A stretch of DNA of 64,000 bases from Promethearchaeota archaeon. GTDB lineage: Archaea > Asgardarchaeota > Lokiarchaeia > Sigyniarchaeales > SOKP01. The notes below the pieces were generated by a model. That model searched no databases. It worked only from the letters and a program-made list of their open reading frames with translations, and was not told the DNA's origin. Positions 7,615-64,000 of this stretch are shown one piece after another; position 1 is the first letter of the stretch; each line of letters opens with the position of its first letter. Position numbers and translations under genes: made by a program. The stretch covers positions 100,045 through 164,044 of the forward strand of contig JAHLWP010000004.1 of assembly GCA_019057865.1 (NCBI GenBank). The letters are read 5' to 3'.

Positions 7615-9144
7615 ATGGCAATACCTCTACCCGGAACGCCGATAATAATTGACATTGGTTCAGTATATGTAAAAATTGGTTTTGCTGGAGAACCTAGCCC
7701 TAGATTTGTATTCCCATGCATTACTGGAACAGAAAAATATAAAGCTGTACTAGTTGACGTTGGAGCGCGCAGTATATATGTTGGTAATGATGCAGAACGT
7801 ATGCGCGGTGTGTTAAAGATAAAATATCCAATACAGAGAGGCACAATTATGGATTGGAATAGTTATTATGAGATCTTAAATTATATCTTTTACACATTAT
7901 TAAGAATTGACAACCTCTATGATTATCCTGTTTTTTATACTGAAGCGCCATTTGTACAAAAAGAAACTAAGGAATATATTGCAAGAGTTCTATTTGAAAC
8001 GCATAGAGTTAAAAGTTTAATGATGATGTCAACACCATTATTGTCAATATTTAGTGTTGGTCTTACATCAGGTTTGGTTATAGAAAGTGGTGATGGATTA
8101 ACCTGGGTTGTTCCAGTTGTTAATGGAAAAATAGTCCATCAAGCAGTCCAACAGATAAAGCTTGCGGGTATTGATGTTAATCAAAACTTAAAAAATCTAT
8201 TAATGAGGGAAGGGATAAGCATAGCATCTTCGGCAGTCGATGAAATAGTTAGGGAAATTAAGGAAAAAAATTGTTATTTCATTTTAGATCCACAAAAATC
8301 TCCTACTACAAGGGATAAATTAAGTTATTCTATGCCTGATGGGGCGAGTTTAAAAATCCCTAGTCATGTCCTCCATGAAGCTCCTGAAGTTTTATTTAAT
8401 CCTAGTATATTAGGATATGGTAATGTTCAAAGCATTCAAGAAGCTATTATTACTTGTTTAAAAATTATGGATAAACAATATTGGAGTGAACTTTTATCTC
8501 ATATAGTATTTTCAGGAGGAAATCTTTCATATAGTGGTTTTCAAGAAAGATTTGAATCAGAATTAGATAAACTTCTCCCCCAGTTAGGGCGTATTCCTAA
8601 ACCAATTACTCCAATGTCTGCTGTTAAAAGTGAATTAATAAAATTACAAGCAATGGAAATTAAGAAGAAAAAAGAAGATACATGTCCTCAATGTGGAGCT
8701 TATGTGGATTTAAGCACTGGAATAGAATATTGTCCCTCTTGTAACGCTCGAATGGTAGTACCTGAAATAAAAATTGGCCCTGAAGTAGAGAAAGAAAAAA
8801 AATTGAAAAAAGGAATCACGGTTAGATGCCCAAAATGTAAAAAAGAAATAAAAGATCCTTCCTCGGTTTTCTGCCCTTATTGTGGAAGAACCATCGAGGA
8901 ATTAGAGAAAGTTGTTATTCCCGAAAAAGTTAGTAAAAAAACTCCTGCTCAAGAATTTTCTGAATTTTTTGAATCTGCAAATAAACTCCTTAGATTTTTT
9001 GTTCCAGATAATCTTCAATATGCAATTTTTAATGGAGCAGCGATTTTAGGTAGTCTCCCTAGTTTTTTACAACTTTTTATTACTTATGAACAATTCCAAT
9101 CTGATAAAAATTTATTATATCGAGATATCAGCGAAATACTTTAA
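7615..9144 (+). CDS. Actin-related protein (Asgard Arp) with an inserted region carrying four CxxC motifs
   Basis: Actin motifs IDIGSVYVKIGFAGEPSPRFVFP, YPIQRG, TEAP, ESGDGLT, FSGGN, GAAILGSLPSF; insert with CPQC, CPSC, CPKC, CPYC. Confidence 0.92.
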   Translation: MAIPLPGTPIIIDIGSVYVKIGFAGEPSPRFVFPCITGTEKYKAVLVDVGARSIYVGNDAERMRGVLKIKYPIQRGTIMDWNSYYEILNYIFYTLLRIDNLYDYPVFYTEAPFVQKETKEYIARVLFETHRVKSLMMMSTPLLSIFSVGLTSGLVIESGDGLTWVVPVVNGKIVHQAVQQIKLAGIDVNQNLKNLLMREGISIASSAVDEIVREIKEKNCYFILDPQKSPTTRDKLSYSMPDGASLKIPSHVLHEAPEVLFNPSILGYGNVQSIQEAIITCLKIMDKQYWSELLSHIVFSGGNLSYSGFQERFESELDKLLPQLGRIPKPITPMSAVKSELIKLQAMEIKKKKEDTCPQCGAYVDLSTGIEYCPSCNARMVVPEIKIGPEVEKEKKLKKGITVRCPKCKKEIKDPSSVFCPYCGRTIEELEKVVIPEKVSKKTPAQEFSEFFESANKLLRFFVPDNLQYAIFNGAAILGSLPSFLQLFITYEQFQSDKNLLYRDISEIL

Positions 9145-38258: not shown

Positions 38259-41200
38259 TTAATGATCATAGATATTTTTAAAATATTCTATATGAGTACT
38301 ATTTAGATGATCTATTAAGTCTCTTTCTCCCTCTGAAATTGAATAAATATCAAAAATTAAATTATCAATTTCTCGATAAATTGCTTTAGATTCATTATTT
38401 ATTTGACCATTATTTTCTTCTAAACGTAAAGTAAGATGATCTACATTCTCAGTGATTACATCTATTATTCCTTGATTTGCTTCTACGATGGGCAAATGTC
38501 TTATCATATACTGATTTAAGTTAATTGTAGTATCCTTTTGGTTATTGATAGCATACCAACAGTAAAACTGTATTAGACTTGAATTTAGAATAGCAGAAAG
38601 ATATTTTAACATTTTATTATCTTTGTGAAGTAATGAATAGATTGAGGATGTAAAACAAACAGGTTCCTCTGTATAGATAGTCTCTGGGACGATACTATTA
38701 TGTTTAATTAATAATTTTTTATTCATATAATATTCATAATTCTCTCCTTTTAATTCATCAGCAGAGATTTCCTCAAGATTAAAGGATTTATTCTTATCAA
38801 TGTAATTATATTTAAAATCGTTTTTGGCATCTATAAAATAGCATGTACCCTCAACATTCTCTTTTATAATTTTTCTAACTTCTGTGAGGCCAGTATCTTC
38901 TTCTCCACGGATCATTTTAGGAAAATCGACAGTATTTAAAAAATTTAAATCTGCTTTTTTTTCAATTTTTTTAATTAACTTGTAAATGGGTTCAGTTTGC
39001 TTTATCCTGATTCGATTTAAAACAGCTGTATCATTATTACATTCAGGGCATTTTATATATTCAGTATAATAATAAAAATCAGCATTTCCGTCATAATATT
39101 TGCAAGTTCTATTCTGACATATTCTTATATTATCGATTTCAAAAGGATTTTCTCCATCCTTATCTAAATCATATTCTATTATTGTCTCATTATCGAAAAG
39201 GTCTTTGATTTTCAATTTTCTAGAATAGCTCTTATTCCCATGAAAAAAGAGAATCTGAACTTCATTTGTAGGTCCTTGAAATTGATTTGAACCGATATCT
39301 GTTATCTCATATATCCCAACATTTTCTAATAAAAAATTCCGAACTGATAGATATTTTTGTCTTAATAAATATGATTTAGGTGTGAGAATTCCTGCATATT
39401 GGCAAGGTATTTCTTTTCGAGCTATTCTAAGTAAAAAATTTAAATATGCATCTTCCGTTATTTTATCACTTTCTTTGAGTATAAGCTTCTCTAATGGACT
39501 TAAAATATTGCCATAAGGTGGATTTGTGAGGATAATATCAAACCCTTTAGTAGTAAAAAAATCTGAAAATTCCATCGACCAATGAAAGGGATTAATTGTA
39601 CGTAAATCCTCTAAACCTATGAAATAGGTAATCTTTATATCTTTAATAGTATCCTTATCAATGAGATTAAGTAAATTCTTAAATAAAGTTTCAGGATCTT
39701 GGGCTTTAAACTTATCCTTCCTATCTGGAGAAAAGACTCTATTTGTAAATGAAATATAATTCTTTCTAAAAGTAATCCCTCTTATAACTTGACTTTTTTC
39801 ATCTTTTTTAAAACTATCCTTCTCTTCTTCAGTAATATCAAACTCTGTATCTTTTTTTGATCTTATTGTTATTGATTCTATATTGGTAAGATCAATATCA
39901 TTAAATTCTTGAGGTAAGATAGTGATTTCTCTTCCGGTAATATTCTTCTTTTGAAAATCTCCTAATAATAATTTGTCAAAATTATCTACGTATTTATTTG
40001 TGAGTTCTTTTATTTCAAGTCTTAAAGATTCTCTTTCTACCTGTGTCTCTTGTCCATAATATCTCCGTATCTTTTTATTTCTCTCAATAAGCATCTGTCT
40101 TAAGGAATCTTCCTTCTTCCCTGCCCATTCACTAAGGGGGGATAATCCGCTGATAATTTTTTTTCCTCTTTTTGTCACCACATCAACCTTTTTAATACTC
40201 TTAGTATATCCAAGTAAACTATTACCAACACGTATATTATATTCTATATTTGGTAATGGTTCAATCTCTAAACCGATTGTATCATACTGCGGTGGGGGTT
40301 GAACAATCCAAAGCCATAATCTTAATTCACATATCTCGACAGCAGAAGGATTAATATCTACTCCATATAGATTATTTTGAACAATAAATGATTTCAGATC
40401 AAATAAATCTTTAAATGGGCGTCTATCTCCCTCAATCTTTTCTTTGGATTTATAAGACAATTCAATTAAGTCAACATTTCTGATAAAGAAATTATAATAA
40501 TCTACCATTAAATTACCTATACTCACCAAAAAAGCACCAGAACCTATAGCCGGATCGCAAATTTTTACGTTCTTCAATAATTCTATTGAATATTCATATA
40601 TTTCAGATTTGTGTTCAAGAGAAAGCATTTTAAATTGAGTTACTGTTTCAAGCGTCCATACTAGTTTATTCTTAAATTTTTTATTGATATTATCAAGCAA
40701 ATATCTTTCTAATGTATTTTTTGCCATATAGCGAGTGATTAGAGATCTTGTATAATATGCTCCTGTCTCTTTACGATAGTCTCCAATCGATTTCTCAAAT
40801 ATATATCCTAATATACTTGGATTTATAGAATTATTTTTTTTACTCTGTTCTTCTCCTTCCTCTTTAAGGGTAAAATTATATGTTTTTAAGAATTGCCAAA
40901 TATCAATAATTGCATCAGAATTTAGAGAGATGGTTGGATTACTTTCTTCTATTTCTGAAACACGAAATAATCCTCCATTCAAATAAGGCAATTCTTTAAA
41001 CTTCTCCAAAACATCAATTCTTTCACCCTCATTGTTAAAAACATTAAAAAAAAGATCCATTAAACTTTTAAAATAATTTCTTGGCTCCTCATTATCGAGA
41101 ATTTCTTGAACAGGATCAAATCGTAATAATTTCCAATCCAACAGAATTTTTATGAACATCATCCTAAAAAATATTGTCCTATAATAATTTATTTTTTCTT

Positions 41201-41966
41201 GTCTGTATTCTGTCTCTGACATTCCTTTTGAACGAATAAGCCCCCTAATATTAATTTTAGGCAAAGTTTTACTGGTACCTTCCCCTGTTAATTTTCTCAA
41301 TCTTCTACTAAATTGCTGAAAGAATTTTTTAGTTATAACTTCTCCTTTTACTTCTTCAAGATAGGGTCTCTCTTCTCCTATTGCCACATCACGAATTATT
41401 TCTAGAATTTCGTGGGGTTTTTTTTGAATGGGTTTCATCGAATTTGAAGATTTATCATGAATTAGAATATACCATTCATTAAAATTGGTCACAACAGCAT
41501 TATATTTTTGTTCTAATCCAACACATTTTTCGAACCATTCTTGAGCTTGTTCAATTCCTTCCTCTCTTTTATCATCTTTTTTATCTCTCTTTTTGTCTAA
41601 TCTTTTATTAAGAGCCTCTACTTCAAACAGTAAAGATTTTCCTTTCCCTGCGTTTAGAATCCCAAAATCTGGAAAACGCTCAATATCTTTTCCTTCAAAA
41701 TGTTTAGAGATTAAACGGACTTGATCTATTATCAAATCATCTGAAATATCTACTTTATATAGTAATCTTTTTACAAATTTATCTGTTAAGGGTTCTGGTT
41801 GGGAACCTTTCGTTAATGGCAACGGTTTTATATATTTAGAAGATAAAACTAATCTTTTATCCGCTTTTTGATCTAGACTAAATAAACATGCTCTAATTTC
41901 GTCATTATCAATAACTTTTTCCATAAATTTCTCTCTTGCTTCTTGAAAAATAACTTGAAAATTCAA
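38259..41966 (-). CDS. Type IIG (Eco57I-like) restriction-modification enzyme: PD-(D/E)xK-like nuclease, N6-adenine MTase and TaqI_C-like TRD
   Basis: FPDF...FEVE, LPYLNGGLF, LGYIFE, GAYYT, DPAIGSGAF, YGVDIN, FHW..EF, TNPPYG, YL.AILNS, HLPI. Confidence 0.92.
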   Translation of the reverse strand: MNFQVIFQEAREKFMEKVIDNDEIRACLFSLDQKADKRLVLSSKYIKPLPLTKGSQPEPLTDKFVKRLLYKVDISDDLIIDQVRLISKHFEGKDIERFPDFGILNAGKGKSLLFEVEALNKRLDKKRDKKDDKREEGIEQAQEWFEKCVGLEQKYNAVVTNFNEWYILIHDKSSNSMKPIQKKPHEILEIIRDVAIGEERPYLEEVKGEVITKKFFQQFSRRLRKLTGEGTSKTLPKINIRGLIRSKGMSETEYRQEKINYYRTIFFRMMFIKILLDWKLLRFDPVQEILDNEEPRNYFKSLMDLFFNVFNNEGERIDVLEKFKELPYLNGGLFRVSEIEESNPTISLNSDAIIDIWQFLKTYNFTLKEEGEEQSKKNNSINPSILGYIFEKSIGDYRKETGAYYTRSLITRYMAKNTLERYLLDNINKKFKNKLVWTLETVTQFKMLSLEHKSEIYEYSIELLKNVKICDPAIGSGAFLVSIGNLMVDYYNFFIRNVDLIELSYKSKEKIEGDRRPFKDLFDLKSFIVQNNLYGVDINPSAVEICELRLWLWIVQPPPQYDTIGLEIEPLPNIEYNIRVGNSLLGYTKSIKKVDVVTKRGKKIISGLSPLSEWAGKKEDSLRQMLIERNKKIRRYYGQETQVERESLRLEIKELTNKYVDNFDKLLLGDFQKKNITGREITILPQEFNDIDLTNIESITIRSKKDTEFDITEEEKDSFKKDEKSQVIRGITFRKNYISFTNRVFSPDRKDKFKAQDPETLFKNLLNLIDKDTIKDIKITYFIGLEDLRTINPFHWSMEFSDFFTTKGFDIILTNPPYGNILSPLEKLILKESDKITEDAYLNFLLRIARKEIPCQYAGILTPKSYLLRQKYLSVRNFLLENVGIYEITDIGSNQFQGPTNEVQILFFHGNKSYSRKLKIKDLFDNETIIEYDLDKDGENPFEIDNIRICQNRTCKYYDGNADFYYYTEYIKCPECNNDTAVLNRIRIKQTEPIYKLIKKIEKKADLNFLNTVDFPKMIRGEEDTGLTEVRKIIKENVEGTCYFIDAKNDFKYNYIDKNKSFNLEEISADELKGENYEYYMNKKLLIKHNSIVPETIYTEEPVCFTSSIYSLLHKDNKMLKYLSAILNSSLIQFYCWYAINNQKDTTINLNQYMIRHLPIVEANQGIIDVITENVDHLTLRLEENNGQINNESKAIYREIDNLIFDIYSISEGERDLIDHLNSTHIEYFKNIYDH

Positions 41967-49980: not shown

Positions 49981-51360
49981 TTGAAGGATATTATTAATTT
50001 TATTCAAAATTTCAAGAAAGATTATTTAGATGAGGAACATTATTCTAAAGTCCATGTCAAAATAGGAGCATGTGAAAAGGACGACAATGGTAAAAAGTGG
50101 ATCGTGAATTACCTTAGAATTGAATTATTAAGGGATGAAAACCCCGAAATTATACCTGAATCATATTCTATTGATAAAAAAGCAATTATCTTTCAAGAAG
50201 TCATAGATGATAAATCTTTAAATCAGCGAATTCAGGTCTCAAATAGTCGAGTCTTCTATAAAACTGAAGGGTTTTCTTTCGATTTTTACGATGATTTGAG
50301 GTTACCAAAAACCTATGAAGAATTTAAGAAGAAATTCAATACAAATCATTTTTTATATACTTATATCGAATGTGAAAATCCAATGAATCTAATTTTCATA
50401 AATTCATTAGAGAGTTCCAACTCAAAATTCTCATACAGAGATATAGTTGAAAAGGATTATGAATACGGAGATAAAATTATTTATGGAAGGACTCTAATAG
50501 AAAAAGTTTTTGGTTATAAGTTTGGTCCTCCTCAACCAACAATTTTATTAGTTTTTCCTATAAAGACTTTCGAATTTAATCCAGTTGAGAAAGTAATTCA
50601 AGGTAAAAATCATTTAATAATTAACTGGGATATTAGTAATAAATTCAAGGAATATTCTTATGTTAAATCTACAAAAGGGAAAGAAGAATCGCAAATAATT
50701 ACTAATCCCCCTTTAAATTTTACAATTGAAGACGATTTCGAAGGATATATTGAATTTGGAATCTATTGGAAAGGAACAAATGTTTTATTTGATCAAGGCG
50801 TTAAATTATTTCATAAACGATTTTCATATTTTAAAAAGAGACCAGAAGATTTTGAAAAGGGAGAATTAAAGGGAGAATTAATTCCAGAATCCAGAAAGTC
50901 CTTTACTAGATCTGAATTGGAAACTAAGTTGAATAATTTAAAATCAGAAAAGGAATTTAGAGAAAATATTCTTATTCCAATATTAAGAGATTTAGGATAC
51001 GAAAATATTAAAGATACGCATGGAAATCAAGAATTTGGTAAAGATATCGTTTTTAAAGCTAAAAATAGATTTGGTTTCGACGAATGGAATGCAATGGTGG
51101 TAAAAACTGGTAATATCCATGTAGATATCTCAAAAAATGAAAATTTTTTAATTAAAATTATAAGACAAATTGAAATGGCAAAAGGAACGAAATACCCCGA
51201 TCTTAATTATGGAAAAAAAGAAATTACAAATGTTTTCGTTGTTACTAATGGAAAGTTTACTGGAAACACTTATAAGGGCTTCAATGAATTGCTTTCTGGT
51301 AGAAATTTAAAAGGAAGTGTTTTTTTTATTGATAAGGATTATTTATTAGGTTTATATTAA
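49981..51360 (+). CDS. Protein with a C-terminal Mrr-like (Type IV-like) PD-(D/E)xK restriction endonuclease domain
   Basis: SEKEF...L..LGY...HGNQEFGKDI...VVKTGNI...QI..A...VVTNG. Confidence 0.75.
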   Translation: MKDIINFIQNFKKDYLDEEHYSKVHVKIGACEKDDNGKKWIVNYLRIELLRDENPEIIPESYSIDKKAIIFQEVIDDKSLNQRIQVSNSRVFYKTEGFSFDFYDDLRLPKTYEEFKKKFNTNHFLYTYIECENPMNLIFINSLESSNSKFSYRDIVEKDYEYGDKIIYGRTLIEKVFGYKFGPPQPTILLVFPIKTFEFNPVEKVIQGKNHLIINWDISNKFKEYSYVKSTKGKEESQIITNPPLNFTIEDDFEGYIEFGIYWKGTNVLFDQGVKLFHKRFSYFKKRPEDFEKGELKGELIPESRKSFTRSELETKLNNLKSEKEFRENILIPILRDLGYENIKDTHGNQEFGKDIVFKAKNRFGFDEWNAMVVKTGNIHVDISKNENFLIKIIRQIEMAKGTKYPDLNYGKKEITNVFVVTNGKFTGNTYKGFNELLSGRNLKGSVFFIDKDYLLGLY

Positions 51361-52078: not shown

Positions 52079-52921
52079 ATGATCTTCCAAGATAAGATCG
52101 ATGAAACTAATGAACAAATAGAAGAGATAGAAAAAATTATTGATGACTTAAAGAATCAGCTAAAGAAAGCGACAGATGAAAATGAAATTTATGAGATCAA
52201 ATGGAAGATTAAAGATTCATGTAAGCAAGCTAAGGATAAATACCGATCCTTGCAGATTTGGTCCAAAAAAGATCAGTCTGACAATTATTTTAAATATCTT
52301 TGTAATGAAATCTTTTTTTATGAAAGCTGTTTAAAAATGCTTGAAGCCAAGTTCGGCACAGAGAAGATAGATTATAGACATTATCTTAATGTCGCATATT
52401 TAGAAAGTATTTACTTCTCTGATAATGAATATCCCCCGAATTTTAGTGAATTTCAAAGTTCGAAAACTTTTGATGACTTAGGAGTCAATCTGATTGTAAA
52501 TAACATTTATAATGCTCAAAAAAATATAGAAGTCATAATAACTCATCATAAGAAAGTAGCTCACAAGGATTTATTCATTTATTATGAATTATTGGGCGAT
52601 TTGGAAATTCATATTTTTTGTTATTACCAAAAATTTGAATCATATGAACATCGGGAATCATTGTTTAATGCATTTCTTTATTACAAATTCTCAATATGGC
52701 ATAAAACTCAACTCGAAAAATTACACCCTCAAACACACTTTGATGGATTACATGGTTGGGCCAGTCATGGCATATTCCATGATTTTTACGGTAAACTAGG
52801 TGTCTCATTTATAACAGATGTAAGAGATAAGAAAGAGAAACTTAATATGAATTATCCCTTAACTCAAGAAGAAAATATGAAATTAGAGAAATTATTTAAG
52901 AGGGATATAAATGGAGGATGA
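52079..52921 (+). CDS. Hypothetical helical (TPR-like/coiled-coil) protein
   Basis: 280 aa; GAGG upstream; overlaps the next gene. Confidence 0.55.
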   Translation: MIFQDKIDETNEQIEEIEKIIDDLKNQLKKATDENEIYEIKWKIKDSCKQAKDKYRSLQIWSKKDQSDNYFKYLCNEIFFYESCLKMLEAKFGTEKIDYRHYLNVAYLESIYFSDNEYPPNFSEFQSSKTFDDLGVNLIVNNIYNAQKNIEVIITHHKKVAHKDLFIYYELLGDLEIHIFCYYQKFESYEHRESLFNAFLYYKFSIWHKTQLEKLHPQTHFDGLHGWASHGIFHDFYGKLGVSFITDVRDKKEKLNMNYPLTQEENMKLEKLFKRDINGG

Positions 52922-53558
52922 TTCCAATTCTTTCAGCAGAGTAATTCCTAAAATAGGAGACCCACCAAAGGGGGAGGGTCTATTAGAAAAACCTCTTGAA
53001 ACTGAAGAGATTTCTAGTCTTCATTTAGTTACTATAAAGACGAATATATGTAAAGATATTAATGTGGAATTTCATACCATTGAAGGGGAAATAATCCAAG
53101 GCACAAAAATCCCTGTAAACTTTCTTTCTAAAATCCAAAACTATGAAAATTTAGGAATTAGGAATGAAATCCAAAAGAGACTATTCAAAAAAAGTCAATA
53201 TGGAGAACTAGTGCAAAAAGGAGGGATATACATTTTTTGCGATTCCAAAATTCCTTCTATTAAAAGACAAATTTATGTTGGTGAGTCTAATGAATTACTC
53301 ACTCGTCTCAAGAATCATAAAAAAACAAAACAAGGGAATTTTTCATCAATACTTATCATCACAAGTTTGGGGGATAATATTGGGAAAGATAAGCTAAAAG
53401 TAATTGAGTCTATGTTGATTAGATCATTAAAAGAACATCCCGCTTTCGAGGTAATTAATAAGCAAGAAAAAACTAAATTTCAAGTAGAAATTTTTGATGA
53501 ACCATTAGTTAAGAAGTATTATGAAACAATTTTGCATTTAATTGAGCGGAATTGTTGA
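52911..53558 (+). CDS. GIY-YIG nuclease family protein
   Basis: GGIYIF...IYVGES..L..RL..H...IESMLI...N. Confidence 0.85.
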   Translation: MEDDSNSFSRVIPKIGDPPKGEGLLEKPLETEEISSLHLVTIKTNICKDINVEFHTIEGEIIQGTKIPVNFLSKIQNYENLGIRNEIQKRLFKKSQYGELVQKGGIYIFCDSKIPSIKRQIYVGESNELLTRLKNHKKTKQGNFSSILIITSLGDNIGKDKLKVIESMLIRSLKEHPAFEVINKQEKTKFQVEIFDEPLVKKYYETILHLIERNC

Positions 53559-54212: not shown

Positions 54213-55130
54213 CTATTTATCTTGTTCTTGTTCTTTTGGAAATGTAATAACATCATAATCTTTTTCTTTTAATTTTTTTAGTATTGGATTTATTGCAGGA
54301 TCTAGTTGTTTTTCAATGAATTCTTCTTTATTTTGATAAGGTTTGTCTTCACATTCCAATTTAGCTTTAGCATAGTATAAATCAATTTTGTCATATTCTA
54401 ATTGTCTTTCTTTTTTATCTAAAATCCAAGAAGACAATGGATTAGTGTAATTATCATTCAAGTATTTTTCTTCTAATTCAAATTCTCTTAAACGTTTAAA
54501 ATATTCAAATAGATTAGGATCATGAAATTCATTGAACTCAATCTTGATCGTAAAACTCAAATCCTCAGGATTTTCAAAACAATACCATAAATCAGGGTTA
54601 TTTATAAAACAATCATAAATTATTGAATCAATTAATTGATAAAATTTTCTTCCCATTTTATTAGATAAGTAAAATGGTTTTGTATTTAATTCTTGATCAA
54701 TTTCTACCTCATAATTCTTTATTATAAGAAAAGGAAGTAAGAAATCAGCTGTTTGTATCATAGGATCGTCTAGATCGTTTCTATTAAATGAATGTAATTT
54801 CTCAAAATTTATCTTTCTTCTTATTTCAGGATATAAATCATAAAATTTAGGATTCACTATAAATTCTTCAGGATATTTATCCTTATTTTTTCCATATTCT
54901 ATTTCTCTATGATTGATTACATGCCCTTTCTCTATTAAGTAAGGTTTTTCATAGATTGTTCTATTTTCTTTATACATTCCTCTTAAATACCATTTCAATT
55001 GATTCAAGCTAATTTCTCCTTTAAAATGATCTTTAATTTGTTTAAAGATACAATGAGGGTTATCAAAAATGTATTGGATTATTTTCTTTTGATAATTGCT
55101 AATTATTTCTTCTTTTTCTTCTTTATTCAC
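54213..55130 (-). CDS. N-terminal wHTH protein; probable repressor of the replication module
   Basis: QKKIIQYIFDNP...FKQIK...SLNQLKWYL; divergent from the RHH operon. Confidence 0.5.
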   Translation of the reverse strand: MNKEEKEEIISNYQKKIIQYIFDNPHCIFKQIKDHFKGEISLNQLKWYLRGMYKENRTIYEKPYLIEKGHVINHREIEYGKNKDKYPEEFIVNPKFYDLYPEIRRKINFEKLHSFNRNDLDDPMIQTADFLLPFLIIKNYEVEIDQELNTKPFYLSNKMGRKFYQLIDSIIYDCFINNPDLWYCFENPEDLSFTIKIEFNEFHDPNLFEYFKRLREFELEEKYLNDNYTNPLSSWILDKKERQLEYDKIDLYYAKAKLECEDKPYQNKEEFIEKQLDPAINPILKKLKEKDYDVITFPKEQEQDK

Positions 55131-55451: not shown

Positions 55452-55607
55452 ATGACTCCTGAGGAAAAGCAAAAAAGAAATCAAACTATAAAATTATGGA
55501 AGATTCTTGAGGAAAAGAGAATTTCACTTCTAGATTCTATAGAAGAGAAAGCTCAGAAACTAAGAGGGCTTGGTATTAATATTGATTTGGATTTTTTGGA
55601 CTTATGA
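55452..55607 (+). CDS. Small 51-aa protein (MTPEEKQKRNQTIKLWKILEEKR...), not in the ORF track
   Basis: ATG directly after the RHH stop, with an AGGTGA SD-like motif upstream. Confidence 0.6.
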   Translation: MTPEEKQKRNQTIKLWKILEEKRISLLDSIEEKAQKLRGLGINIDLDFLDL

Positions 55608-55616
55608 GGTGAGATT

Positions 55617-55757
55617 TTGCCAACTTGTAGAAAGGATTATGAAAAATGTGAATATTATCATCCAGAACAACCCATAGAATCAAGATGTATGACGGATTTA
55701 AGTGTGGGTTATTGTACTGAGGAACAGGAAGCCAATAAGAAAGATAAGGATTCATAA
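55617..55757 (+). CDS. Small 46-aa four-Cys protein (MPTCRKDYEKCEYYHPEQPIESRC...YC...), not in the ORF track
   Basis: TTG start with a GAGGTGA SD motif. Confidence 0.55.
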   Translation: MPTCRKDYEKCEYYHPEQPIESRCMTDLSVGYCTEEQEANKKDKDS

Positions 55758-55758
55758 G

Positions 55759-55828
55759 AACCCTTATCAGAAGTCATTATTAACATGTGGTGATGTCAAA
55801 AAATGAGACTTCCAAATATAAAAGGGTT
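55759..55828. other. Long hairpin upstream of the Prim-Pol gene (possible origin or antisense copy-control RNA)
   Basis: AACCCTT/AAGGGTT, GAAGTC/GACTTC, ATT/AAT and TTAACAT/ATGTCAA stems around a 6-nt loop. Confidence 0.5.
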
Positions 55829-55900
55829 TTCTAAGTTTAAAAATTTTCTTAAAGCTCTTTCTTATCATAGTTCTAACTATCTTATAAAGAGGGTAAATTA

Positions 55901-57562
55901 ATGAGTGAAACAAGAGATAATTTAATCAATGATTTTCCTAATACTTGGAATATAATACCTATTAGTAGAAATTCTAAAGTAGCTAGTAGCTCTTGGAAGA
56001 ATTATCAAAATAAAAAATATCCAAGAAATAAACTTCTTAAAGATAATGGAAATTATGCGGTAATATGTGGAGAGATAAGTAATAATCTTTTGATATTAGA
56101 TTTAGATCTAAGAGATAAAAAACATTTTGAATCTATTTACTCAAAATTTCAAAATAAATATCCTGAATTATCTAAAACTCTTATAGTAGAAACTCCTCAT
56201 GGATTTCATTTATATTTTTATATGAATGGTTTTAGTGAAACTTCTCATAATAGAAAAAACGCTTGTTATAATGAGAAATTAAAGTTTACCGGATCAGTTA
56301 AGACTCAGTTTAAAGAATACCTAAAGGGATTTGATTGTAAGGGAGAAAAGGGTTATGCTATAATACCACCTAGTAGAGTGGATAATTTATATTATAAATA
56401 TCATAATAAGGAAGATATAAAACATATTGCCTTAGATGATTATGCTAAGATAAATAATTTTTTTCTCTTAGACAAACCAAAAAATCTGAGAAAGCCTTTT
56501 AAAGACATTCTAAATGGTAAAATTGAAATTGAAGAACAAGCAAATAAAACCGGTAAAGAAGAATTCCTTTATTGGAAATATCTATTCAAAGAGGCTTATA
56601 ATTTCTGTGGATTAGAACCTAAAGAATTATATAAGGGATTAGAGGAAAATCAACCTAATTTTGATATAGTAAAAACGAAAACTCAATTAAATCATCATGA
56701 TTTCCATGAGAAACCATTGACAAATGGGAAAATGAAAGAACTTTACCCAGATTATTATGCTGCTAAAAAAAGATCAGAATCATATATTTCCTCTAAAACA
56801 TCTAAAACAAAAGCAAAAAAAAAGAGAGAAATTAAAACTCTAACTCCTAAGAGAATTCAAGAATGTGAAGAATGGTTAAATCTACCGGAAAAAGAGAAAT
56901 ATAATTTCCTCAACGAACTTATTAGTTTTTATATTAAGGGAAAAGAAACAAGAGAACAAGCCTTAACAATACTTTTCCTAAAATTAAGTGTTATATTAGC
57001 AAAAGAACTTATCTCAAAAATGGATTTAGTCATGGGAGATTTATCGGCATTAAAAGATGACTTAAAAATTGGAAGTGAAACTGTTATTAAAAAAGAAAAT
57101 TCAGAAGTTGATAATAAAGTATTTATCGTTCATGGGAGAAACCAAGAAATGAAAGAATCTGTTGCTCGTCTAATAGAAAAAGTAAATCTTAAGGCTGTTA
57201 TTCTTCATGAACAACCAAATGAAGGAAAAACTATTATTGAAAAGTTTGAAAAGTATTCTGATGTAGGTTATGCTGTAGTACTTCTTTCCGCGGATGATAA
57301 AGGGTATTCAATACAAGATGGTCAAGAAAAAACTAAATTTAGAGCACGGCAAAATGTCATCCTTGAGTTGGGGATTTTTTATGGAAGTCTGGGAAGAGGC
57401 AAAGTTGCCGTGATTTATGAGGAAAACGAAGAGTTTGAAATGCCGACCGATTTACTGGGAATTGCTTATATACCTTATGATAACAGAGGAGCTTGGAAAT
57501 ATCATTTAGTTGGAGAATTACAAAGTAGTGGTTTTGCAGTCAGTAAAAATGATATCAATTGA
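55901..57562 (+). CDS. Bifunctional primase-polymerase (Prim-Pol) fused to a C-terminal Cap12/Pycsar-type TIR domain
   Basis: N-terminal WKNYQ, NYAVICG, LILDLD, ETPHGFHLYF, IIPPS; C-terminal KVFIVHG, ILHEQPNEGKTIIEKFE, ARQNVILELG, PTDLLGI.YI; GAGGGT SD. Confidence 0.88.
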   Translation: MSETRDNLINDFPNTWNIIPISRNSKVASSSWKNYQNKKYPRNKLLKDNGNYAVICGEISNNLLILDLDLRDKKHFESIYSKFQNKYPELSKTLIVETPHGFHLYFYMNGFSETSHNRKNACYNEKLKFTGSVKTQFKEYLKGFDCKGEKGYAIIPPSRVDNLYYKYHNKEDIKHIALDDYAKINNFFLLDKPKNLRKPFKDILNGKIEIEEQANKTGKEEFLYWKYLFKEAYNFCGLEPKELYKGLEENQPNFDIVKTKTQLNHHDFHEKPLTNGKMKELYPDYYAAKKRSESYISSKTSKTKAKKKREIKTLTPKRIQECEEWLNLPEKEKYNFLNELISFYIKGKETREQALTILFLKLSVILAKELISKMDLVMGDLSALKDDLKIGSETVIKKENSEVDNKVFIVHGRNQEMKESVARLIEKVNLKAVILHEQPNEGKTIIEKFEKYSDVGYAVVLLSADDKGYSIQDGQEKTKFRARQNVILELGIFYGSLGRGKVAVIYEENEEFEMPTDLLGIAYIPYDNRGAWKYHLVGELQSSGFAVSKNDIN

Positions 57563-57804
57563 GATATTTTTTTGATTGAAGGTTGCTATTGTTTTATAAA
57601 TGATGTACTCAAAAAAGTGATTGATATGTTGTTATTCCTTTTTTAATTTTCTGTAAGGTATCAAATCCCGTATCTACGACTTTTTGGTCAAAGTGCTCAC
57701 CCATATTCTCAGGATTGAACCCTGCGATAATTTTGGCTAAGGGGATTTCAGTTACAGCATATAAATTGTAAAGAATTTTTTGAAAGTATTGAAATTTTAT
57801 TTTA

Positions 57805-58028: not shown

Positions 58029-58754
58029 ATGTCTATAATGGAAAGAATTCCTCAAATTAATAAGGCTTTTGAAATTTTTGAGTCGGTCATTGATGAAGCA
58101 ATTGATTCGAACACTCCAGATGATATTTTAATAAGATCATATTTCTCAATTATTGAGATCTTGCAAAAGTTCACGGGTACAGGAAGGCACGTAGTAAAAT
58201 TTTCTGAGTTTTTTTATGTGAGATATGTCAAGAAATATCTGGAAACACATTTAGAAAAACTTAGTTTTACTCCGGAAGGTATTAAAGGTAAAAATAGCCA
58301 AAGATTTGTTGCTCTATATAAGGGAAAAAAAGTAATCTTATCTTCTGACATCCCCATTCAAAGTGCCGGTATCTCGGAGCTCCCCGATATATTTGTGGGA
58401 ATAGAAAAAGAGAATGGAATAATCCACCCTTTAGCCATTTTTGAAATAAAATTACATCAAGATAAAAACCAATTAGCTCCTTTATTAAAACGATTCTTAA
58501 AAATGAGAGACGATTTTGTAAATAAATTTTCAGGTGACGAGTTACCTTACTTCGTATGGTTATATCTTCGTTATGAAAAGTATTTAAACCAAGATTTTGA
58601 AGAAGAGATAGCTCAGTTTAAAAGTATGTCTAAGAATAACTTAATAGTAGTCAATGAAATTACGGAATGGAATGTTAATTCATATAAAAGTAATATTAAG
58701 GGAGGAATAAACTCAATTCTACAAAAAATTGTAAAAAAAATAGAGAATTTTTAA
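58029..58754 (+). CDS. PD-(D/E)xK nuclease (restriction endonuclease-like)
   Basis: FSE...LPDIFVG...AIFEIKL. Confidence 0.7.
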   Translation: MSIMERIPQINKAFEIFESVIDEAIDSNTPDDILIRSYFSIIEILQKFTGTGRHVVKFSEFFYVRYVKKYLETHLEKLSFTPEGIKGKNSQRFVALYKGKKVILSSDIPIQSAGISELPDIFVGIEKENGIIHPLAIFEIKLHQDKNQLAPLLKRFLKMRDDFVNKFSGDELPYFVWLYLRYEKYLNQDFEEEIAQFKSMSKNNLIVVNEITEWNVNSYKSNIKGGINSILQKIVKKIENF

Positions 58755-63634: not shown

Positions 63635-64000
63635 AATATTAATCTTAATTTTCTAGCGCTTATAAATTTGGAGACTCCCGAAGAATCTTAAAAATATAGG
63701 AATTAAGTTTAATAATTTCGTTTTTTTAATTATTATCTCCTCTTTTCTTCCATTATATATTAGTTGAAATACATATATTTAAAGGAAAATTCAACTCACC
63801 CCTTATAAATAAAAAGTAACTAAACAGAGAAAATGTTTAGAAAAAGAGTTAAGATTCTTAGGTAAGAAAAATGGTTGAAGATTTTTTCTTTAAATATGAG
63901 GTCTAAATCATCGTGTTAAAATTTTTCCTTTATATAGGATATTGAAAAAATTATATTATCTCATTTCGTTCTAACAGTAATATTTATAATGTTATATTAC

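Follow-up and report, generated by a model that had tools for sequence, protein, structure and literature searches.

The locus and its surroundings

The window analysed here is a stretch of 64,000 nt from a contig of a metagenome-assembled genome of an Asgard archaeon, and its 38-64 kb part looks defence-island-like in Pfam and PADLOC searches. Within this part we found a single unbroken ORF of 553 aa (P0001), a length well beyond chance expectation in DNA of 27% GC, which combines a primase-polymerase (Prim-Pol) and a TIR domain. The features of the region are as follows.

38259-41966, minus strand: type IIG restriction-modification enzyme, 1235 aa, with an Eco57I/MmeI-type methylase and a TaqI_C specificity domain
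52911-53558, plus strand: GIY-YIG nuclease-domain protein, 215 aa, PADLOC candidate PDC-S14-like (E 3e-17)
54213-55130, minus strand: divergently transcribed backbone gene, 305 aa, with homologues at the same position in L011 and L016 beside intact Prim-Pol-NTPase genes, and in L001
55260-55757, plus strand: small early ORFs of 63 aa (repressor-like), 51 aa and 46 aa, with tblastn matches to L001, L011 and L016
55901-57562, plus strand: P0001, chimeric ORF of Prim-Pol, NTPase lead-in stub and TIR (ORF calling, Pfam; junction bridged in four studies)
55901-56770, plus strand: Prim-Pol catalytic domain and helix-bundle domain, pRN1 ORF904-like, residues 1-290 (PF09250, pLDDT >90, Foldseek, alignment A2)
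56771-56842, plus strand: Lys/Ser-rich disordered linker, residues 291-314 (pLDDT <50)
56843-57034, plus strand: replicase stub, residues 315-378 (alignment to P0122, P0130 and P0006; pLDDT 56-80)
57014-57058, plus strand: junction zone, residues 372-386, SKMDLVMGDLSALKD, where replicase homology stops and stand-alone TIR homology starts
57116-57562, plus strand: CAP12/Pycsar-type TIR domain, residues 406-553 (PF10137, PDC-S35, alignment to 7un8, Foldseek)
57426-57801, no strand assigned: segment of 376 bp (last 40 TIR codons and downstream DNA) with a second genomic copy, 100% identical to L003 1259-1634
61217-63121, minus strand: 634-aa AAA_15/AAA_21 ABC-type ATPase with a C-terminal Schlafen AlbA_2 domain, HEC-01A/AriA/OLD-like in PADLOC

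An ORF of 280 aa without a family (52079-52921) overlaps at its end with the GIY-YIG gene, and the gene for the AAA_15-Schlafen ATPase, which is of a defence type, lies at the contig edge. Two ORFs that flank the P0001 locus, of 459 aa (49981-51360, plus strand) and 241 aa (58029-58754, plus strand), matched nothing in Pfam, PADLOC or PHROG. The genome encodes four actin-family genes, one of them in the window at ~7639-8586 on the plus strand (G000:C66:107683-108630; 219 bits); the best actin homologue elsewhere in the genome scores 444 bits, which points to an Asgard-type host.

Apparently intact integrated elements of the family to which the upstream genes belong are present in other sediment archaea (L011 8001-21500, L014 277-9727 and L016). 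They code for a Prim-Pol-NTPase replicase of 700-900 aa and tiny early ORFs; the L014 element also encodes a DnaJ-domain protein and a tyrosine integrase, and the L011 locus has an actin gene at its edge. The modules of these intact relatives combine a divergent gene of 300-420 aa with two or three tiny ORFs, a replicase and a series of further small ORFs. The window holds the left-hand genes of such modules, namely the divergent 305-aa gene, the 63-aa repressor-like ORF, which matches the transcriptional repressor family phrog_876 (E 6.7e-5), and the 46-aa ORF. Downstream of the TIR domain, the window has nothing in common with the intact element modules. What is left of the element in the window is a stump of ~2.8 kb from the left-hand backbone.

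A Prim-Pol and a CAP12-type TIR domain in one reading frame

By profile, catalytic motifs and fold, the N-terminus of P0001 is a Prim-Pol of the archaeo-eukaryotic primase kind. PF09250 matches residues 16-171 (E 5.7e-10, 40.3 bits, cut-off 22.8), and the motifs LILDLDL (64-70) and TPHGFHLYF (98-106) supply D67/D69 of motif I (DxD) and H100/H103 of motif II (sxH), which together with D145 of motif III (hD) occupy conserved columns in alignment A2. An AlphaFold2 model of P0001 built on this alignment (40 rows; mean pLDDT 85.8) is confident for residues 1-290, with pLDDT >90 over 11-290, and Foldseek relates this part to pRN1 ORF904 (1rni, E 3e-8; 3m1m, E 3.2e-8). The first 290 residues thus have the fold of ORF904-type replicases, which consist of a Prim-Pol, a helix bundle, a P-loop helicase and a wHTH. 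By sequence, this N-terminus is closest to Prim-Pol-NTPase proteins of 700-900 aa that integrated elements encode, and upstream element genes are common to their loci and that of P0001. Unlike these replicases, P0001 has neither the NTPase nor the wHTH, both being deleted from the position of Walker A onward.

The C-terminus is likewise a TIR domain of the CAP12/Pycsar type by profile, fold, catalytic glutamate and NAD-contact residues. PF10137 (CAP12-PCTIR_TIR) matches residues 406-528 (E 1.3e-34, 119.2 bits, cut-off 24.7), and the domain, also confident in the model over 406-553, displays the motifs KVFIVHG (406-412) and RARQNVILELG (481-491). Foldseek retrieves the SfSTING TIR domain (7un8, E 2e-5), with R483, N485 and E489 aligning with R78, N80 and E84 of this structure; E84 is the catalytic glutamate of SfSTING/Cap12 (PMC9402430). 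Between the two confident parts, the model is helical with middling confidence over residues 316-394 and disordered over 291-314 and 388-401. The sequence-only reading of this locus had called one uninterrupted ORF with a Prim-Pol and a Cap12/Pycsar-type TIR domain, and had quoted their motifs and a retained TIR glutamate; the ORF and all these motifs are in place, and both domain calls stand above the Pfam thresholds. It had also held that Prim-Pols of this kind are as a rule fused to a helicase, and the full-length relatives do have a helicase-type NTPase.

Three known systems come into question for the TIR half. With the Cap12 (TIR-STING) of CBASS and the PycTIR of Pycsar, P0001 has in common the TIR subfamily PF10137, the aligned R, N and E of the NAD site and a TIR fold that matches 7un8 and 9lmq; it differs from them in lacking a STING domain or any other sensor of cyclic nucleotides. 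The NCBIfam equivalog models for Cap12 score 32-34 bits on P0001 against a cut-off of 450, and no CD-NTase or pyrimidine cyclase model of Pfam or PADLOC matched the ten flanking ORFs. The third is PDC-S35, a PADLOC candidate comprising stand-alone proteins of ~260 aa with a small N-terminal domain and a CAP12-type TIR, which resemble the COG4271 'predicted nucleotide-binding protein'. All five PDC-S35 models match residues 386-553 (E 1e-41 to 1e-63), which account alone for the whole score (best E 3.5e-63) and are 62% identical to the stand-alone P0128, a protein from sediment of the same kind. However, they cover only model positions ~111-262, and P0001 lacks the N-terminal domain (~85-110 positions at the start of the models), with the Prim-Pol and the NTPase stub in its place. 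One model, PDLC05004, seemed to cover residues 297-550, as if the PDC-S35 protein were complete; we rejected this, as residues 290-385 alone gave no PDC-S35 signal with the PADLOC models. On these profile matches, we take P0001 to be neither a Cap12 nor a PycTIR nor a complete PDC-S35 protein. PDC systems are candidates found by guilt-by-embedding (bioRxiv 10.1101/2024.01.29.577857), and PDC-S35 is mentioned in none of the papers that we found.

The stub and the position of the join

Residues 296-~378 correspond to the segment that precedes Walker A in the full-length Prim-Pol replicases that integrated elements encode, where this helical lead-in runs directly into the P-loop NTPase. Three such replicases, P0122, P0130 and P0006 (743-752 aa), align to P0001 without a gap in homology until residue 383-386: ELISKIDL-HGDPSAGKN in the relatives corresponds to ELISKMDLVMGDLSALKD in P0001, and the relatives' Walker A, GDPS[AS]GK[SN], faces GDLSALK. 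In P0001, no intact Walker A or NTPase domain comes after the linker, and GDLSALK leads directly into the TIR part. From the other side, the alignment to P0128 (262 aa), the best TIR-only relative, begins at residue 372, LVIADLIALKEDL. P0001 is therefore composed of a Prim-Pol, a linker and an NTPase lead-in stub, joined to the last helix and the TIR domain of a PDC-S35-type protein, and these alignments place the join within residues 372-386 (nt ~57014-57058). The sequence-only reading had seen in the linker the start of a helicase with a decayed Walker A. The lead-in to an NTPase is borne out; as to the decayed motif, GDLSALK fits the GDPSAGK of the replicases, but the LVIADLIALK of P0128 fits about equally well, and because of this equal fit to both parents we place the join only within 372-386 and do not claim a decayed P-loop.

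The lost part of the replicase can be described from the C-terminal halves of the relatives, which hold a P-loop NTPase followed by a wHTH. This NTPase is weakly DUF5906/SF3-like, with a match in three of seven members (best E 0.002); searches of PDB and PHROG gave no match for the family, weak matches to DUF5906 and Parvo_NS1 being the only ones, and no curated family matched the NTPase of the subgroup of P0122, P0130 and P0006.

The junction in independent samples

The junction is crossed by contigs of four studies. In run X1, a contig over 55000-57455 (record 1) crosses it at an even depth of 264; further bridging contigs come from X3 (record 11, 56206-57793), X4 (record 20, 56774-57108) and X6 (record 26, 56863-57212), at 98-99% identity to the window. 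The four studies include X1, which is possibly the source sample of the assembly; the same junction is also present in a separate ENA assembly (L001) and in the Logan contig L010. The coverage check of the junction called for by the sequence-only reading is thereby answered by contigs that span nt ~57014-57058, and it is confirmed that the fusion of Prim-Pol and TIR is real and its junction no assembly artefact. That P0001 is an assembly chimera, a thought invited by a source genome in 87 contigs with 5% contamination and by the 376-bp repeat at the 3' end of the gene, can be dismissed as extremely improbable, because contigs from four independent studies, the one from X1 at even depth and the others, like the separate ENA assembly, at 98-99% identity, span the junction.

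Contig coverage of the 5' part of the Prim-Pol is patchy in X4 and X6. Some contigs of these studies match the window up to 57105-57113, before the first TIR strand, and continue with ~255 nt of unrelated sequence; this break could be another rearrangement variant or could reflect short A-rich chance matches.

Distribution of the architecture

A second protein with both Prim-Pol and TIR was absent from the best 150 of 10,164 matches in a search of 1.84 billion representatives and from the best 120 in a search of 5.8 billion clusters; a fusion would be expected near the top of either ranking. The 90% cluster of P0001 contains P0001 itself, the L001 allele (P0002, with its Logan twin P0257), a 40-aa fragment and nothing else. 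The Protein Atlas returned clusters with the Prim-Pol alone (scores <0.8) and no cluster with both domains. Of 24 congeneric genomes, 23 gave no match to the P0001 protein and the 24th gave a distant TIR match (36% identity), and no other close PF10137 copy was found in the genome of P0001 itself. Among the few papers that combine the terms primase-polymerase, TIR domain and defence, none seems by its title or abstract to deal with a Prim-Pol-TIR protein. Rather than recurring in diverged lineages under selection, the architecture is thus confined to a single cluster of at least 93% aa identity. The junction and the TIR domain occur at ~98-99% nucleotide identity in sediments of four studies; the chimera persists and has spread.

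The sister allele and a truncated copy

L001, the only other allele among the matches listed, is 93% identical to P0001 in aa sequence. A 567-bp deletion (55566-56132), with 13 nt in its place, has taken the first 77 codons, including the DxD motif of the Prim-Pol, and fused a small upstream ORF in frame; this joint is seen again in an independent contig of X3. Like the original join, this deletion keeps the frame, which leaves the TIR domain translatable in both alleles. As L001 shows, at least one lineage can dispense with Prim-Pol catalysis, and this argues against the sensor or oligonucleotide mechanism of the sequence-only reading.

The two alleles differ to three degrees along their length. 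Upstream of the gene the nucleotide identity is 66-72%, over Prim-Pol codons 73-295 it is 90% (dS 0.30, omega 0.22), and over codons 296-553 and the downstream DNA it is 99%, the level switching at ~aa 290-296, at the linker. The alleles are separated by at least two recombination events. An omega of 0.22 might be read as a sign of function in the Prim-Pol part; we rejected this reading, as the three divergence levels show recombination with other elements, and the low value may reflect selection within active elements instead of selection on the fusion. Codons 296-553 show seven non-synonymous changes and one synonymous change, with six and none, respectively, in the TIR part; these stub and TIR changes, eight substitutions between two alleles, are compatible with omega = 1, and omega = 0.22 is rejected (P = 0.02).

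The second copy of the 376-bp segment is a TIR remnant between unrelated flanks on contig C33 of the same assembly (L003, L008). The depth of X1 rises from 264 to 410-565 over 57426-57801, with loose ends at both borders. Elsewhere on C33, L003 398-531 matches window positions 63868-64000 at 96%. C33 may be a strain variant of the island without ~6 kb, or a second locus.

Origin and likely state of the fusion

We consider P0001 to be, on balance, a recent chimera without a dedicated function. The comparisons above show its chimeric origin, the position of the join, the loss of the middle parts of both parents, the restriction to one lineage and the decay in sister copies; the caveat of the sequence-only reading, that a recent deletion might have joined a rep gene to a TIR gene, is supported and has become the main result. 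We propose that a mobile element integrated in the genome of an Asgard-type archaeon encoded a replicase with Prim-Pol, linker, P-loop NTPase and wHTH, and that this element has been cut down to the ~2.8-kb stump. The NTPase from Walker A onward and the remainder of the element would have been lost through a deletion or an illegitimate recombination in codons 372-386, possibly aided by a short chance similarity; in the same event, a TIR gene of the PDC-S35 type would have lost its first ~85 codons, with both remaining pieces left in frame. Its product would be a foldable Prim-Pol, a floppy helical stub and a competent-looking TIR domain without its own, presumably regulatory, N-terminal domain. 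TIR NADases of the CAP12/Pycsar class are active only once they are ordered into oligomers, and because of this need the protein is most likely idle or weakly active, under no strong selection, and not a dedicated switch sensed through the Prim-Pol.

This chimeric origin without function is favoured by the position of the junction, the missing PDC-S35 N-terminus, the element context, the rarity, the decay and the 7:1 ratio of substitutions, as well as by the low-confidence or disordered stub and both linkers in the structure model. Against it stand the intact ORF with all catalytic residues of the Prim-Pol and TIR kept, the persistence in four studies, the TIR in frame in both alleles, the defence-island-like setting and the finding from the homologue search that CAP12-type TIRs are naturally joined to many different N-terminal domains. 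The Prim-Pol omega of 0.22 also speaks against it, but this part is ~10% divergent and the 3' part next to it 99% identical, a pattern that speaks for recombination with active elements and not for selection on the fusion.

Alternatively, the TIR domain alone might matter, with the remnant of the replicase serving only as a source of promoter, start codon and N-terminal extension; the TIR would then be an effector under the repressor-controlled early operon of the element, e.g., a superinfection-triggered suicide or exclusion module. Such a role, which we regard as unlikely though worth weighing, would explain why the TIR stays in frame behind the early ORFs in both alleles despite their different N-termini, why both have retained the divergent gene and the small repressor-like ORF upstream, and why the TIR and the downstream DNA are 99% conserved with 66-90% identity upstream. 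Yet the P0001 TIR has lost the N-terminal domain present in all stand-alone PDC-S35 relatives, no purifying selection is seen in it (six non-synonymous changes against no synonymous one), and a further copy is cut to 40 codons.

A new single-gene defence system, as the sequence-only reading proposed, would require that the Prim-Pol bind or extend foreign ssDNA or replication intermediates and that several molecules gather on one template, whereupon the TIRs cluster, NAD+ is destroyed and infection aborts. We hold such a working Prim-Pol-sensed defence to be unlikely, and give the same weight to a variant in which the co-opted replicase remnant, through its Prim-Pol, recognises single-stranded or replicating DNA of a related invading element. 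In favour of it, P0001 has kept both catalytic centres, the gene lies in a defence-island-like location and persists in four studies, TIRs of this family combine with many sensor domains at their N-terminus and, judging from the model, the flexible linkers would allow clustering. However, the sister allele has kept the TIR without motif I and the first 72 Prim-Pol residues, the join cuts the NTPase at the P-loop and not at a domain border, no diverged relatives with the same architecture appear among the matches listed, and the changes in stub and TIR are seven non-synonymous against one synonymous. The proposal of a new system is also at odds with the single tight cluster, the lost N-terminus of the TIR and the setting in a ~2.8-kb stump, and that of the Prim-Pol as sensor or oligonucleotide maker finds no support once L001 does without the DxD motif. 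The fusion is confined to one lineage and its close homologues have an intact NTPase, a pattern that the sequence-only reading itself had named as speaking against its proposal.

Implications

The Prim-Pol-TIR architecture looks like an accident of one lineage with signs of decay and not like a new type of system. If P0001 were after all a working Prim-Pol-TIR immune gene, it would represent the birth of a defence gene caught within one Asgard archaeal lineage. As a chimera, it is a clean, contig-supported case of mobile-element debris and defence genes recombining in an archaeal defence island. The outcome of such recombination is new in-frame multidomain genes, the raw material from which architectures of an N-terminal sensor plus TIR presumably arose.
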